Virus record (IMG/VR): IMGVR_UViG_3300017963_000068
Span: 1 to 52,419 of that record
Origin: a virus
Lineage: Duplodnaviria > Caudoviricetes
Strand: one strand, 5' to 3'
DNA length: 52,419 nt
Made by a program: the position numbers and the translations under genes. The notes under the pieces are model-generated. The model searched no databases and was not told where the DNA came from. It was given only the letters and a program-made list of their open reading frames with translations. Positions 31,637-37,060 of this stretch are shown piece by piece; positions within the stretch are counted from its first letter, which is position 1; every line of letters starts with the position of its first letter.

Positions 31637-31963
31637 CTAATCCTCCTCGATCGGCTCGAACGGTGCCCCCATTGTCCACGCTCGGAGTGACACGTCCCAG
31701 ATGAGCCAATGGGAGGCGAGGTTCGGGCGGGTTTCCGCAACGCTACCGTCGACGGCGCGCGCCGTCACGATCCGCTTGCGGCCCTTGCGGGATCCGTTTC
31801 GCGTCACCTCGAACACGCGCGCGATCGGCTGATCGCCCCTCGGGGTGGCGCCGGTCAATACGGCGTCGATTTGAATGTGGCGCGCTGGGAGCCCGCCTCC
31901 GCGGCGCACGCGGAACACCTGGCCGCGCTTGACGGCGATCCGGATCGCTTCGCGGCGAGCCAT
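31637..31963 (-). CDS. Basic hypothetical protein
   Basis: 108 aa from ATG 31963 (TAATG coupling). Confidence 0.5.
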   Translation of the reverse strand: MARREAIRIAVKRGQVFRVRRGGGLPARHIQIDAVLTGATPRGDQPIARVFEVTRNGSRKGRKRIVTARAVDGSVAETRPNLASHWLIWDVSLRAWTMGAPFEPIEED

Positions 31964-33915
31964 TAGCGCTCCCCCTCGCGACTTTCCGCGTCCTCCCAGT
32001 GAGCGGCTCCGAGGCCCACGGCTTGCTCGAGCTTGCCCAGCTCGTCCGCGAAATGGTGAGCGCAACGCGGCCCGATCGGATAGAAACCGACATCCGCCGG
32101 ATCGTTCTCCGGCCCCTCGTATCCGGCGGGCGCGAACGCGGCGCCGCCGTCGATCACGTGGAGGTAGATCGTATCCGCGCGCTCCTCCACGTTCGTGCCG
32201 CAAAAGCAACATTCCATTCCCTGGCCCTCGAACTTGCGACAACGCGGCCCGCCGGTGGCCTCATGCTGGCCGTTGAACGGAACCAGGCCCAGGCGGCCCT
32301 CCGGCGTGTATTCGCTCGCGAAGTAGATCGCCGCGGCGGCGCATTCCATGGCCTCCTTGCGCGCGCGGTTCTCGTGGCACGTGATCCCGCCGTCGCAGTC
32401 CTCGCCGTTCGGGTGGCACAGCCACTCGTGGCATTCGGTCACGGTATCCAGCGGGGATCCCTTGAGGAGGATTTCCAGGGCCTCCTCCGCGAGCTTGCGG
32501 ATCGCGTCCACGTAGAAACGAACCTGGGATCCGAGGGCGTGGCCAGGCCTGCGCGGCCCGGGCTCCGGTTCCTGGGAGCGAATCCACTCCAGGCCCTCGC
32601 GCATGGTGTCGAAGCTCCGGCCGGAGCTTGAGGCCATGCCGCGCCCTGTGGTGCCGAAAGGTCCCCACCGGCGCTCCCCCCACATGGGATTCGTTTCGGC
32701 GTTTTTTCCGAACAGGTGGCCGTGGTAGTAATAATCGGCGTCCGACACGTCATCCTCCCCGGGCGTTGCTATGCGGAGGGCGCCGTGAACCATGCGGGCC
32801 GTGTCGCCGGCGGCCACGCGCTCGCGGACGCCCTGGAGGAGCCTCGGCGGGACGTGTTCGAGGATCTGAATCACGGAGGCGCCGCGCTTGCGGGTGTCGA
32901 ATCCGTAAGCGTTGATCGCGTTCGCGATGTTCGCGCACACGCGCGGCGTGCGCGGCCCAGGGCGGCGCGTGTCCGCCTGGACGATCACGGGCTCCACCGG
33001 AGGCTCCGGCCGCTTGTGGCCGTTGTCCGCGTTCCGGAGCGCCAGGATCACGCCGGCGGCCTTGCGGGTTTGAGTGTCGCCGGCAAGCTCGCCACGCTCC
33101 ACCATGCCATTGACGATCGTTGCGGCGGCGGTGAGGTGACGGGGGCCGCCGTTCGGCCCGTTGGTTTTCCCCGCCAGGCGCGCGACCACACACGAGTCCA
33201 TTTGAACCATGGTGATAGGGCAAGCGGAGGCGATTCGGGACAGGATCTCCTTGGCTTTGCGCCCTCGAGGTCCTAGGCCCAGCAAGTGAAGCACAACGGG
33301 CTGAACGGTGGCCACGAACTCCTCGGCCTCCTTGGGTGAGGTGGCCGCGGCTTGACACGGAAGCGCCGGGATCGGCGCGAATCCCAGAACGTCGACACAG
33401 CGCTTGAAAAAGCTCGCTTGCTTGAACGCGCCACGTTGAACCGGCATGAGAACGCGCACGCCCATGGCGTCCAGCTCGCGCATGTCCTCGGCGTAGCGCT
33501 CGAGGCGCGCGAGCGTTTCCGCCTGATCGCCGATCTTGTCCGGCGCTACCACGTGGAGCTGATCGCCCAGGGCGCGGCCCAGGCGCTTGTAAAGATCGAT
33601 CACGCGGGGCCAGTCGACCGGCTTGGACTTCCCTTTCAGTTCCGCCTGGAACTCGGGAAACGCGCCGCTGTCCACGAACACCTGAACGTCAGTCCCCACA
33701 AGCTCGAGGATCTCCGCTTCGATGTCCGCGTTGACGTTCGCCGCGGTCACGCCCACGTCATGGCCGATCGCGCCGAACCCGCGGACTTCGCCGCGCTGGC
33801 ATCCGCTCGCGAAGTAGGCGATCGGATCCAGCGGAAGCTCCGGCGCCGGTTGCGCCGGGATCGGGAAGTCCACGCCCTCGAGCAATTCCACCAGCTCGTA
33901 AGCGGGGCGAGTCAT
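31963..33915 (-). CDS. TGT/DpdA-like base-exchange (transglycosylase) protein with long multi-domain C-terminal extension
   Basis: 650 aa from ATG 33915; ordered motifs VFVDSGAF, VAPDKIGD, MPVQRG, HLLGLG and QMDSC match the TGT TIM-barrel catalytic layout. Confidence 0.65.
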   Translation of the reverse strand: MTRPAYELVELLEGVDFPIPAQPAPELPLDPIAYFASGCQRGEVRGFGAIGHDVGVTAANVNADIEAEILELVGTDVQVFVDSGAFPEFQAELKGKSKPVDWPRVIDLYKRLGRALGDQLHVVAPDKIGDQAETLARLERYAEDMRELDAMGVRVLMPVQRGAFKQASFFKRCVDVLGFAPIPALPCQAAATSPKEAEEFVATVQPVVLHLLGLGPRGRKAKEILSRIASACPITMVQMDSCVVARLAGKTNGPNGGPRHLTAAATIVNGMVERGELAGDTQTRKAAGVILALRNADNGHKRPEPPVEPVIVQADTRRPGPRTPRVCANIANAINAYGFDTRKRGASVIQILEHVPPRLLQGVRERVAAGDTARMVHGALRIATPGEDDVSDADYYYHGHLFGKNAETNPMWGERRWGPFGTTGRGMASSSGRSFDTMREGLEWIRSQEPEPGPRRPGHALGSQVRFYVDAIRKLAEEALEILLKGSPLDTVTECHEWLCHPNGEDCDGGITCHENRARKEAMECAAAAIYFASEYTPEGRLGLVPFNGQHEATGGPRCRKFEGQGMECCFCGTNVEERADTIYLHVIDGGAAFAPAGYEGPENDPADVGFYPIGPRCAHHFADELGKLEQAVGLGAAHWEDAESREGER

Positions 33916-34181
33916 CGGCTCACCACCTTGAAACCGAGGGCGTGGAGAACGCGGACGGTGTGGGCGGCGCCGCCGGAGAACTCGCGCGCGCTCAGGCCGC
34001 ACGCCACGCCGAGGATCGCCTTGGACGGGTAGAGGTTCCCGCCGAACGCGAGCTGGTATCGAAGCGAGGGCCGGTAACCGTGGGCGGCCAGGAACCCGTC
34101 CTGGCCCAGTGCATCGCACATGCCGATCGCCCTGATCACGTCCTCGCGGGTTGCTTCGCTGGTTCTTTTCTTGGTTTCCAT
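33912..34181 (-). CDS. Stand-alone ScoMcrA N-terminal head-domain-like protein
   Basis: 89 aa; TREDVIRAI..CDALG.DGFL..HGY...RYQL...GNLYPSKAILGVA...FSGG.AHTVRVLHALGF closely follows the ScoMcrA/HNH-associated N-terminal domain as recalled. Confidence 0.75.
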   Translation of the reverse strand: METKKRTSEATREDVIRAIGMCDALGQDGFLAAHGYRPSLRYQLAFGGNLYPSKAILGVACGLSAREFSGGAAHTVRVLHALGFKVVSR

Positions 34182-34352: not shown

Positions 34353-35783
34353 CTAGAACGCCTCGCCCTTGGGTGGCTTTTTGCCGCGTTGCGGCGGGGC
34401 CTCGGGGGCGCGCATCCATTCGGGCTCCTGGAACTCGTCCTCCTCGCCGGGCTCCTCGGCCTCGGCCTCGGCCTCCTCCTCGAACACCTCGCCGGTGTCC
34501 GGATCGTAGTCCTCGCCCTCCACCAGCTCGGCGTCCACGGCGTCCGCCGGATCCAGATCGAACTCGCCCTGGGGCTCCTCGGGCTCCTCCTCGGGCTCCT
34601 GGGCTTGCTGGGCCTCGATTGCGGCCATTCTCCGCTCATCCTCGGGGATTTCCTCCGGTGGTGGCTCCGGCGCCTTGGCGGGCGCCTGGCGGCGCCTGGG
34701 CGCCCCCTTGGCGGCCTGGGGCTTGGGCCGGCGGGCTCGAGCTGGCGGCGCGGCGGACACCTCGGGCTCCGCGGGCGGGGGCTCCTCCTCCGCGGGCTCC
34801 TGGGGCGCCGGAGCGGGCGCTGGACGGGCGCTCCGGATGGCCGCCTTGGCGGCGGCGGCGCCGCGCTTGGGCGCCTCCTGGGAGGGCTTGGGCGCCTCCT
34901 GGTCCCCGGCCTGGCCGGCGGACTTCTCCCCGCGCTGGGCGAGGCGGTGATCGAGGATGTCCGACCATGACGCCTGGCCGTCCCGGATCGTGGCGTACAC
35001 CTGGCGAAGCTCGGCCAGCTCGCCCGGACTCACCTTGCCGAGGTCGTGGCCCAGGTAGCGGGACAGCTCCGCGGGTTGGACGTTGATCGAGGCGAAAGCG
35101 TCCGCCACCTTGCGGCGCTCCGCGTCCGGATCGCGCGCGGCCTGATCTTTCTGCGTTCGGATCACCGCGCCCATGGCCTCCTCCACAAGCCACCCGGGAA
35201 TGATCCGGAGGCCGCATGTTCGGATCGCCTTGCTCACCAGGGCGGCCTCCTTGTTCAGGAGATCGTCATCCGAGGCGGACACGAGATAGACGGTATCGCC
35301 GCGCGAATTCGTGCGCGAGGCGAGGGCGGTTTGATTCTTGCGGAGGTAGCGGCGCTCCACCACCTTCGAGATCGTGATCTGTTTCCGGTGCGTCACGTTT
35401 TTCTCGAAATCGATCACGCTCACCTCCACGATCCGCTTTTCCGCGTCATCGTAGATCGTGATCGCTTGGGTGTCGCAATTGCCGAGGGCCTGGAGGGCGG
35501 CCTCCACGAACCGGATCGATGGCCCCTCCACGCCCTCGCCGATCGGTTTCAAGTAGCGCGCCACCTCGGCGAACGCGGGGCGCTTGCATTCGCGGAGGAC
35601 ATCGGCGCGAACCTGATCCATGTCGCGCGGGCATTTCATGGCGACGATCCAGCGCGCCTCGATCGCGGCTTTTGCCTGGGCGGCGATCGCGAGCGCGGCG
35701 GTTTCGCCCACGCCTTGGGTGAGGGCGCCGGCGAATTGATCCTGGCGAACGGCCAGGGCGGTATTTCCGTTTCCGTTTGTCAT
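34353..35783 (-). CDS. Probable single-strand annealing recombinase partnering YqaJ
   Basis: 476 aa; AIEARWIVAMKCPRD, GPSIRFVEAALQALGN and SKAIRTCGLRIIPG motifs; long acidic disordered tail; directly after the exonuclease. Confidence 0.55.
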   Translation of the reverse strand: MTNGNGNTALAVRQDQFAGALTQGVGETAALAIAAQAKAAIEARWIVAMKCPRDMDQVRADVLRECKRPAFAEVARYLKPIGEGVEGPSIRFVEAALQALGNCDTQAITIYDDAEKRIVEVSVIDFEKNVTHRKQITISKVVERRYLRKNQTALASRTNSRGDTVYLVSASDDDLLNKEAALVSKAIRTCGLRIIPGWLVEEAMGAVIRTQKDQAARDPDAERRKVADAFASINVQPAELSRYLGHDLGKVSPGELAELRQVYATIRDGQASWSDILDHRLAQRGEKSAGQAGDQEAPKPSQEAPKRGAAAAKAAIRSARPAPAPAPQEPAEEEPPPAEPEVSAAPPARARRPKPQAAKGAPRRRQAPAKAPEPPPEEIPEDERRMAAIEAQQAQEPEEEPEEPQGEFDLDPADAVDAELVEGEDYDPDTGEVFEEEAEAEAEEPGEEDEFQEPEWMRAPEAPPQRGKKPPKGEAF

Positions 35784-35798
35784 CGGTTGCTCCTGTGT

Positions 35799-36896
35799 CT
35801 AGCTGTTCCAGTTGCGCGGGACGTTGAACCTACGCGATCCGGGCTTGGGCCGCGTGTGCGTTTTGATCGCGGCGTCCAGGGCCTCCACCAGGCGCTTGCC
35901 GCTATCGGGATCGATCTGTAGCTCATCGGCCAGGATCAGGATGTCCTGGCGGTATGACGCCACCACGTCCGCCCAGGAGGTGGTGGTGGAATCCTTGCTC
36001 CGTTTCCAGGTGATCCGCTGGCGCTTTCCGCCCCCGGTGATCGCCGGAAATTCGAGGCCCGCACGATCGCCGATCGCCTCCTTGACGATCTGAACCAGGC
36101 GGCTTTCCTCGCGCTCGAGTCCGGCGATCTCGGTGCGCGTTGCATGGAGCGCCTGGACGGCCTCGAGGACTTCCCCGGCGGCCTCCACGTAGTCCTCGGA
36201 CGTGTTCCGGGGCCAGCGGTTCGCCTGGTGGTCCGTGTAGCTTTGCGTCCCGTCCGGGGCCACCGGGACGCCACCGATCACGTGCTCGTCCCAGAACGCG
36301 CGGCACGTAGCGATCAGCATTTCCTCCAGCTCGGGATCGCGCGTCACCCGGTAGTCCTGGGGAAGGTTGTCCATGAACGCCGTAAGGTCCCACACCTCGA
36401 AGTCCCCAGCGGTGAACACAGCGGAGGCGATCCACTGGTTCCAGGCGCATTGAACCAGCTCCCAGGGCGGTACCTCATCGGTCCCGGGCTCGCCGTATCG
36501 GTGCGCTTGCCAGGTGGTGTGTGTCTTGATCTCGTGGCCACCGATCGGCGCCACGTTCTCCGGGCCATGGGAGAAAAGCGATCCGTGGGTGATTCGCGTC
36601 CCGCCGGGATACAGGATCCCGTCCGGCGTGGCGGCGGCCCACTCCTCGAGCGGGTGAACCAGCGTTCCGGGAACGGCAATCTTGATTCCGCGCCGCTTCG
36701 CAAAGTCGCGCCGGATCGGATCCTCGAGAATGTTTCCCCACTTCATGCGATCGCTGTCAACGTCCGCGGCCTTGCCCTCTTTCTCGAGCTGAACGTCCAG
36801 CGGTCCTCCCCACGGATACACGCCGCACACCTTCGCGGCGTCCGTGGCGGTGATCTTGGTTCGCCGGAGCGCCAATTGTTCGGGCGTCAATGCCAT
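35799..36896 (-). CDS. YqaJ / lambda-exonuclease family recombination nuclease
   Basis: RRTKITATDAAKVCG, WGNILED, AATPDG, HEIKT and VQCAWN motifs. Confidence 0.9.
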   Translation of the reverse strand: MALTPEQLALRRTKITATDAAKVCGVYPWGGPLDVQLEKEGKAADVDSDRMKWGNILEDPIRRDFAKRRGIKIAVPGTLVHPLEEWAAATPDGILYPGGTRITHGSLFSHGPENVAPIGGHEIKTHTTWQAHRYGEPGTDEVPPWELVQCAWNQWIASAVFTAGDFEVWDLTAFMDNLPQDYRVTRDPELEEMLIATCRAFWDEHVIGGVPVAPDGTQSYTDHQANRWPRNTSEDYVEAAGEVLEAVQALHATRTEIAGLEREESRLVQIVKEAIGDRAGLEFPAITGGGKRQRITWKRSKDSTTTSWADVVASYRQDILILADELQIDPDSGKRLVEALDAAIKTHTRPKPGSRRFNVPRNWNS

Positions 36897-37060
36897 GTCT
36901 GATCCTCCTGGTGGCCTCACGTGGGGCACGCGGACGCCGAGGAGGAGAAGTCCGGCCGTCGACGTCCAGGTGGCACCCACTTGGGCCGGGTTATGAGTCC
37001 CGGCGAACCTACCACAGGAGGGTGACGGTGGCTACTGTGGCGCCACGGTAAAGGTATGGA

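Follow-up and report, generated by a model that had tools for sequence, protein, structure and literature searches.

The DNA analyzed here is the IMG/VR virus record IMGVR_UViG_3300017963_000068 (Duplodnaviria; Caudoviricetes), taken over its whole length of 52,419 bp (hereafter, the window). It is a complete phage genome with direct terminal repeats and an estimated completeness of 100%; its G+C content is about 66%, and the minus strand carries nearly all genes. We consider one gene of the early recombination/replication module, whose 650-aa product, here called P0001, had been described in a first-pass annotation as an orphan DNA base-exchange enzyme similar to tRNA-guanine transglycosylase (TGT) and phage DpdA, with about 350 additional residues fused to it. 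The gene and its immediate upstream neighbor have the following layout.

33912..34181, minus strand: upstream open reading frame (ORF), 89 aa plus stop: ScoMcrA-type "head" domain on its own
31963..33915, minus strand: P0001, whole ORF, 650 aa plus stop: DpdA-like barrel, then the orphan middle, then a small Cys domain
33028..33915, minus strand: barrel, residues 1–296, (beta/alpha)8, placed in the TGT/DpdA superfamily as an apparently new, unnamed subfamily
32302..33027, minus strand: orphan middle, residues 297–538
32026..32301, minus strand: small CxxC...C domain, residues 539–630

The ATG of P0001 at 33915 shares an ATGA overlap with the stop codon of the upstream ORF. Throughout the gene, 60-codon windows have third-position GC of 0.72–0.90 and second-position GC of 0.33–0.58, and since this coding-type pattern extends from start to stop, the C-terminal ~350 aa are translated in the P0001 frame. 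All motifs noted earlier are present in the translation and in the stated order, namely, DSGAF (residues 82–86), APD (124–126), PVQRG (158–162), HLLGLG (210–215), MDS (239–241), and, at the C-terminal end, CCFCG ... YPIGPRCAHH.

Barrel domain, active site, and relation to named families

A search of 5.8 billion proteins yielded 80 homologues of P0001, each covering only residues ~1–300. In the alignment of the barrel (A1; 77 sequences, P0001 and 76 homologues), residues F80, D82, S83, G84, A85, F86, E88, D126, Q131, Q160, G162, P186, H210, L211, G213, G215, and D240 do not vary, being the same in 77 out of 77 sequences. A hidden Markov model (HMM) of the barrel was then used to align 70 distinct copies from viral contigs, among which the catalytic Asp residues are never substituted (D82 in 68 of 68 aligned copies, D126 in 67 of 67, D240 in 66 of 66), while position 86 is occupied by Phe in 67 copies and by Tyr in one, and position 160, by Gln in 63, His in three, and Pro in one. 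The predicted active-site residues, together with their partners in DpdA of Enterobacteria phage 9g, are:

33670..33672, minus strand: Asp82 of DSGAF, predicted general acid/base, aligned to D72 of 9g DpdA
Phe86, four residues past Asp82: predicted gate
33538..33540, minus strand: Asp126, predicted base-binding residue, aligned to D114 of 9g DpdA
33196..33198, minus strand: Asp240 of MDS, predicted nucleophile, aligned to D215 of 9g DpdA

In bacterial DpdA, Asp95 is the general acid/base, Phe99 is the gate, Asp130 and His181 read the base edge, and Asp256 is the nucleophile; the three Asp residues are described as invariant in DpdA and TGT, along with the Phe four residues after the first Asp (PMC10164549). 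The D-x3-F spacing of P0001 is that of bacterial DpdA, and by analogy Asp82 and Phe86 would have the roles of Asp95 and Phe99 (PMC10164549). The family thus has the three active-site Asp residues, the aromatic gate four residues on, and Gln or His at the base edge. The members with His at position 160 (L008, L012, and L013) are in this respect similar to bacterial DpdA and 9g DpdA, and one of them, L012, adjoins QueC and a radical-SAM gene. The alternation of His and Gln at this position may reflect a difference in specificity.

The AlphaFold2 model of residues 1–296, built with the 77-sequence alignment as input, is an eight-fold beta/alpha barrel with a mean predicted local distance difference test score (pLDDT) of 93.5 and a predicted TM-score (pTM) of 0.90. 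In the Foldseek comparison with PDB, the best 50 matches listed are all TGT from Zymomonas mobilis (E 2.7e-7 to 1.6e-6, TMq 0.46–0.51, identity 13–16%). According to VIA-align, run against 48,161 chains, the best match is the DNA preQ0 insertase DpdA (7ui4_A; Z 14.4, root-mean-square deviation 5.0, 234 residues aligned), with TGT 3unt and archaeal arcTGT 1iq8 (both Z 12.8) and Cap10 (Z 12.2) further down. In the search of predicted viral structures (BFVD), one family member is followed by R9TGF0 of Vibrio phage nt-1 (E 1.4e-6), and then by several "queuine tRNA-ribosyltransferases" of phages and archaeal viruses. Hence the TGT-like fold proposed for residues 1–300 is borne out, the barrel being closest to TGT/DpdA structures, with the catalytic elements in place. 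The fold alone is suggestive rather than decisive, because aldolase barrels intervene in the VIA-align ranking.

The profile–profile comparison points in the same direction. Aligned by hhalign with a profile of 9g-type DpdA (phage 9g DpdA and 22 homologues), the family profile gives a probability of 79.8 and an E-value of 1.5e-5 over 156 columns, and all catalytic positions are paired: D82/D72, D126/D114, Q160/H141, H210/H196, and D240/D215. One detail of the earlier assignment is not retained. HLLGLG, taken there for the Gly loop of TGT, aligns with the "HGFG" strand of 9g DpdA, which suggests an element other than the O6-binding Gly-Gly loop.

As for the named families, P0001 appears to stand outside of them. 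The PHROG profile phrog_887 ("queuine tRNA-ribosyltransferase"), which represents the family of 9g DpdA, matches P0001 weakly (E 0.019, or 0.0063 if the barrel alone is compared) and at E<=0.01 detects three out of 77 members, 9g DpdA itself scoring 2.5e-100; P0001 has no significant match of the kind by which DpdA1 is recognized. The family profile found no match in the whole records of 9g (DpdA1) and Mycobacterium phage Rosebush, and none at E<=10 in those of nt-1 (DpdA2), Campylobacter phage CP220 (DpdA3), and Halovirus HVTV-1 (DpdA4), the latter being a sequence–profile comparison only. A phmmer search of P0001 against PDB returned a chance match alone (E 1.8).

Several observations weigh against the assignment of P0001 to DpdA-like enzymes. 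The hhalign probability, 80%, is below 95%, and the template profile is shallow (number of effective sequences 1.85). In the fold comparison, class II aldolase barrels rank between DpdA and TGT (Z 13.1 and 12.9 vs. 14.4), so that the scores barely exceed those of generic TIM barrels, and the Foldseek TM is about 0.5. The Pfam scan of P0001 gave no family at E<=1; PF01702 (TGT) and PF20314 (DUF6610, the DpdA4 signature) have no matches at E<=10, and the DpdA models NF041059 of NCBIfam and PDLC02807 of PADLOC, none at E<=1. Such negatives call for caution: PF01702 also fails to find the DpdA of phage 9g, a validated enzyme, for which the DpdA models of NCBIfam and PADLOC give no better than E ~0.02. 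No match was found by tblastn of P0001 and the L050 and L012 members against 50,697 GenBank phage records, and hence the family has no biochemical anchor there. Finally, reading of the barrel alignment reveals no conserved CxCxxC triad, which in bacterial DpdA and TGT binds the structural zinc and so pins a C-terminal insertion; the alignment summary contains no invariant or nearly invariant Cys, and the Cys/His cluster of P0001 falls in the lineage-specific extension, outside the barrel.

Overall, the TGT/DpdA-like identity holds as regards the fold and the catalytic residues, but apparently not as membership in a named DpdA subfamily or in the Pfam TGT family; judging by these comparisons, P0001 and its homologues appear to form a separate family, detectable only by profile–profile and fold comparison. 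We found no description of it in the literature, a search that leaves aside the supplementary homologue tables of the DpdA papers, which could list members.

The closest points of comparison may be summarized as follows. With DpdA1 of phage 9g (gp03, phrog_887), the family shares the TIM barrel and the order of DSGAF, xDxIGD, HG(F/L)G, and DS; in both 9g and some relatives of P0001 the gene ends a preQ0 operon, and as 9g dpdA adjoins the polymerase gene, so the P0001 gene lies in an early recombination/replication module. Unlike 9g DpdA1, the P0001 family shows no similarity to it at the BLAST or HMMER level, mostly has Gln for His at the base-binding position, and has a ScoMcrA-head partner or fusion, and the present phage lacks synthesis genes. 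Bacterial DpdA from S. Montevideo (7ui4) is the best structural match and has the same catalytic triad and the Phe four residues after the first Asp; however, its CxCx2Cx22H zinc site and large Ins8 insertion have no conserved counterpart that we could see in the family core, and its partner, the DpdB ATPase, has none recognizable in the 52-kb window. Bacterial and archaeal TGTs (PF01702) agree with P0001 in fold and in the predicted double-displacement chemistry, and differ in the absence of a PF01702 match, in the identity of 13–16%, and in the genomic context, which for P0001 points to DNA. DpdA2, DpdA3, and DpdA4 (of nt-1, CP220, and HVTV-1) are likewise distant TGT-like phage enzymes, some of which are reported to have been found only by HHpred (10.1101/2023.04.13.536721), but the family profile has no match in those three genomes, and DUF6610 is not matched.

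Head domain, preQ0 genes, and architectures of the relatives

According to precomputed annotation, domain PF26345 is located at the N-terminus of 61 out of 80 homologues. The family profile, via the fused relatives, matches residues 5–97 of ScoMcrA (5zmm_A) with E 1.4e-14. In the present phage, and in its sister phage L002 (a 52,628-bp IMG/VR contig whose barrel is 76% identical and which is collinear on both sides), this head domain is a separate upstream ORF. The 89-aa product is 40–63% identical to the fused head domains of the relatives and matches positions 3–89 of the PADLOC model mREase_IV (PDLC03662; E 1.8e-7), that is, the N-terminal part of this Type IV restriction enzyme model. From these similarities the upstream ORF is the split-off counterpart of the head that most relatives carry in one chain with the barrel, at its N-terminus; this domain, and not the C-terminal extension, is what truly travels with the enzyme. 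ScoMcrA (5zmm) is an HNH nuclease that begins with the head, while in the present phage the head is encoded on its own, as 89 aa, beside a putative transglycosylase; the profile match to ScoMcrA and to the PADLOC Type IV model is what they have in common. The head domain is said to have no known function, even in ScoMcrA (PMC6224610).

A model of the complex between the barrel and the product of the head ORF gave an interface score (ipSAE) of 0.89 (median of three runs), the best control reaching 0.09; a score of 0.89 is reached by 58 out of 80 solved complexes and by two out of 110 mismatched pairs. The runs have at least 75% of contacts in common, and pLDDT of the partner is at least 92. This supports binding of the head to the barrel, with the reservation that the alignments used included fused relatives, and the signal may merely mirror intramolecular packing of the fused forms. 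The predicted contacts are made with the N-terminal ends of the eight strands, on the barrel face opposite the active site, which makes the modeled head look like a cap and not like a reader positioned at the pocket.

The absence of que and fol genes, stated in the first-pass annotation, is confirmed for the complete record: QueC (PF06508), GTP_cyclohydroI (PF01227), PTPS (PF01242), and Radical_SAM (PF04055), i.e., the models for queC, folE, queD, and radical-SAM proteins, each give no match at E<=1, while the same models are positive in 10 to 14 of 14 control genomes. Hence P0001 does not co-occur with folE, queD, queE, or queC. Among the relatives, QueC is present in three out of 50 virus records searched (50 of 76), and in two out of 28 that are at least 90% complete. 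In two of the three QueC-bearing records, L050 and L012, it adjoins the family member. The first of these carries the full set:

L050:7751-12429: queD-queC-folE-queE operon and the family member, in a viral contig with 43% G+C

The gene order in L050 is PTPS, QueC, GTP cyclohydrolase I, radical SAM, and the family member, all on one strand and overlapping or abutting. Two genes downstream of this operon there is a gene with an Eco57I-type methylase domain. In L012, whose record is 97% complete, the family member abuts the radical-SAM and QueC genes; the record contains no PF01702 match, and its phrog_887 signal is the family member alone. In this record the member takes the place that DpdA has in a classical phage preQ0 cluster. 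In other phages, then, members of the family belong to a preQ0 operon or adjoin one, and for this reason scavenging of a 7-deazaguanine made by the host, as suggested earlier, is the best available account of how P0001 obtains its base. Phages with dpdA alone that rely on host precursors have been described, with hosts that mostly make them (PMC6884629). The low frequency of QueC belongs with the observations unfavorable to the assignment, as it makes the 7-deazaguanine donor an assumption for most carriers, the present phage included, and so does the supply of preQ0 by the host of this phage, which is likewise assumed.

In total, we count at least 76 viral contigs of IMG/VR that carry the family, and at least 80 protein clusters. 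In bacterial genomes, one stringent pattern found 14 loci, mainly in Myxococcota metagenome-assembled genomes, Microvirga, Massilia, and Salinibacterium, so the family is rare there. Where the barrel was matched in viral loci (75 in all), it lies in ORFs of 1,000 to ~5,770 aa in 34 cases, of 600–1,000 aa in four, of 350–600 aa in 24, and of less than 350 aa in 13. The giant ORFs, in which the catalytic Asp residues are intact, include the following.

L020-L077, e.g., L073:2848-20155, L072:3101-20260, and L060:8-16882: giant ORFs with the barrel

Seven long ORFs were scanned for other domains, with DUF6884 found in three, InPase in one, a C5 DNA methylase together with a weak Mom match in one, and no Pfam domain in two. 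For DUF6884, binding to DNA lesions by base flipping has been predicted (PMC11701544). In the paper on polyvalent proteins, the main text names neither TGT nor queuine nor a TIM barrel (PMC5512222). We also considered a fixed multi-gene system and dropped it, since all-against-all BLAST of the ORFs at 77 loci (76 viral loci and the window) identified no gene that generally travels with the family.

The C-terminal 350 residues

The remainder of P0001 has a different distribution. Window positions 31942–33019 are replaced by other DNA in the sister phage, whose barrel protein (P0002) ends in a Cys-rich tail of ~130 aa and is directly followed by a C5 cytosine methylase gene. From this comparison, the place after the barrel gene seems to be one where cassettes for DNA modification are exchanged. 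The methylase gene of the sister phage is located at L002:11281-12192 (PF00145, E 2.1e-44). Two further features lie within the extension:

GGGGAGG at 32754-32760 and GTG at 32746-32748, minus strand: the two separated by five bases, GTG in frame as codon 390
32338-32445, minus strand: Cys/His cluster, residues 491–526, 42% identical to sister P0002 (BLASTP), found in the sister only

For residues 297–538, a word-indexed search and phmmer against 1.84 billion representatives gave no relative except for this 36-residue stretch of the sister, and a search of the Atlas with residues 301–545 gave no usable match. In the same phmmer search, the small domain had 26 matches (E 3.9e-10 to 9.8e-4), all within residues ~539–630. 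These relatives (P0202–P0227) are mostly free-standing, 24 out of 26 being 81–124 aa long and the other two, 170 and 190 aa. Their alignment (A3) has three invariant Cys, i.e., a CxxC pair and a distal Cys, and one invariant Gly, the conserved pattern being DGG...GDMG...PxGxxC. A full-length alignment (A4) was discarded, as it placed the small-domain proteins on the barrel. Ten of the relatives matched no Pfam family beyond one sub-threshold match to DUF7445. The AlphaFold2 blocks of the domain have pLDDT of 80–94 per ten residues; the model of residues 511–650 had no Foldseek match at E<=0.001, and the best that VIA-align offered were ZZ-type zinc fingers at Z<=3.1, too weak a similarity to name the fold.

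The extension had been viewed as a feature of the enzyme that might direct it to its target. We could not uphold this, as it is absent from 80 out of 80 homologues save for the short Cys/His stretch in the sister, and is replaced by other DNA there; being lineage-specific, it lends no support to a directing function.

The GGGGAGG-N5-GTG element, noted earlier as a hint of fused genes, does exist, and codon 390 could possibly be an internal start of a separate product. Between GGGGAGG and GTG there is also an out-of-frame ATG (32751-32753, minus strand), which opens a 104-aa ORF at 32439..32753. This ORF is probably not a gene, because the coding-type GC pattern of the P0001 frame continues across it without a break.

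Predicted function and alternatives

We favor, with somewhat more confidence than doubt, the reading of P0001 as a DNA guanine transglycosylase that represents a new DpdA subfamily and uses a 7-deazaguanine made by the host. DNA as the likely substrate is indicated by the context, namely, the C5 methylase, weak Mom, DUF6884, and InPase fusions of the relatives, the methylase gene of the sister phage, and the location in the replication module.

By analogy with TGT and DpdA, Asp240 would attack C1' of a deoxyguanosine flipped into the pocket at the C-terminal end of the barrel, and guanine would leave with the aid of Asp82, resulting in a covalent enzyme–DNA intermediate. The incoming 7-deazaguanine would be bound through Asp126 and Gln160, with Phe86 stacking against it; deprotonated by Asp82, it would resolve the intermediate. 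The incoming base would most likely be preQ0 or preQ1 from the queuosine pathway of the host, and has to be host-made under this scheme since the phage has no synthesis genes. Phage DNA modified in this way may then resist restriction. The detached head protein would work together with the enzyme, probably by binding the bottom (N-terminal) face of the barrel.

The same chemistry could as well serve a different incoming or outgoing base, or the enzyme could simply be a DNA glycosylase whose covalent intermediate is resolved by water. We consider this unlikely, albeit worth keeping in view: QueC is absent from 47 out of 50 related virus records, the family appears to diverge from all named DpdA subfamilies, the strand that bears the Gly-Gly loop in 9g DpdA reads PALPCKKAAT in the P0001 family, and the frequent fusion to DUF6884, predicted to bind lesions by base flipping (PMC11701544), fits a wider range of DNA-base processing. 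On the other hand, Asp126 and Gln/His160 are retained as in enzymes acting on guanine or 7-deazaguanine, and preQ0 genes are the only biosynthetic genes found beside family members. A different division of the locus, compatible with guanine exchange by the barrel, is that the 650-aa frame gives two products, the barrel enzyme and an unrelated C-terminal protein started at the codon-390 GTG. It agrees with the in-frame GTG five bases past GGGGAGG, with the C-terminal part being a cassette that was swapped in here and not in the sister phage, and with the mostly free-standing relatives of the last domain (81–124 aa), yet there is no stop codon between the parts, the codon bias is continuous, the sister barrel is also fused to a Cys-rich tail, and a purine-rich stretch before GTG is unremarkable at 66% G+C, all of which makes this division improbable.

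Two other accounts change the target of the enzyme. That P0001 is a tRNA-guanine transglycosylase acting on host or phage tRNA is recommended by its structural neighbors TGT and arcTGT, which are tRNA enzymes, but we regard it as very improbable, given that the 52,419-bp genome encodes no tRNA, the top fold match is a DNA enzyme, the partners and neighbors in the family modify or bind DNA (C5 methylase, Mom-like, DUF6884, ScoMcrA head), and TGT homologues of phages are treated as DNA enzymes in the literature (10.1101/2023.04.13.536721). Alternatively, the protein might be a counter-defense effector, delivered or made early, that strips or overwrites a host mark (dPreQ0/dADG of the Dpd type or a deazaguanine conjugate of the Cap10 type) under the guidance of the head. 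Consistent with this, 34 out of 75 viral loci carry the barrel in ORFs of at least 1,000 aa that resemble polyvalent proteins, themselves proposed to be early-phase effectors (PMC5512222), the head domain derives from a Type IV enzyme, and Cap10 is among the structural neighbors (Z 12.2). However, P0001 is a 650-aa product of a replication/recombination module and not a giant virion protein, it has no link to Dpd or to the cyclic-oligonucleotide-based anti-phage signaling system (CBASS), the head has no known function according to the ScoMcrA study (PMC6224610), and in the model it sits opposite the active site, so that such an effector appears highly improbable.

If P0001 is indeed a DNA guanine transglycosylase, what is new here is the clade and its architectures and not the chemistry. 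DpdA has been proposed as a signature protein for 7-deazaguanine DNA in viruses (10.1101/2023.04.13.536721), and recent genome mining relies on DpdA and TGT HMMs to recognize those deazapurine pathways that modify nucleic acids (10.64898/2026.04.15.718813). The P0001 family would escape such screens, being matched by none of the Pfam, NCBIfam, and PADLOC models tried and, in only three out of 77 members, by the DpdA1 PHROG. Since it escapes them and yet is present in at least 76 viral contigs, exchange of 7-deazaguanine or related bases in environmental phages is probably underestimated. The new architectures, i.e., a split or fused head common to modification-dependent nucleases and embedding in giant proteins, could help to explain how base-exchange enzymes find their DNA target when no DpdB-type ATPase is involved. 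A more far-reaching view, which we find doubtful, is that the family is a sixth, unrecognized clade of DNA base-exchange enzymes whose usual setting is not preQ0 operons but head fusions and giant polyvalent-type proteins with methylase, Mom-like, DUF6884, and InPase domains; in most carriers, including this phage, the base put in or taken out would be one other than preQ0 or preQ1, or else the protein would act at DNA entry as an injected counter-defense enzyme.

The remaining neighbors of P0001 are those of the early module. Beyond the head-domain ORF, the upstream genes are:

34353-36980, minus strand: RecE-like exonuclease (phrog_434, E 5.7e-50), then a phrog_3657 protein of 476 aa whose tail is acidic and rich in Pro

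These two genes, just upstream of the head-domain ORF, probably constitute the recombination module of the phage. Downstream of P0001 there are small ORFs, a helix-turn-helix repressor-like protein, an O-like/DnaD-like initiator, and a DnaC-like loader.

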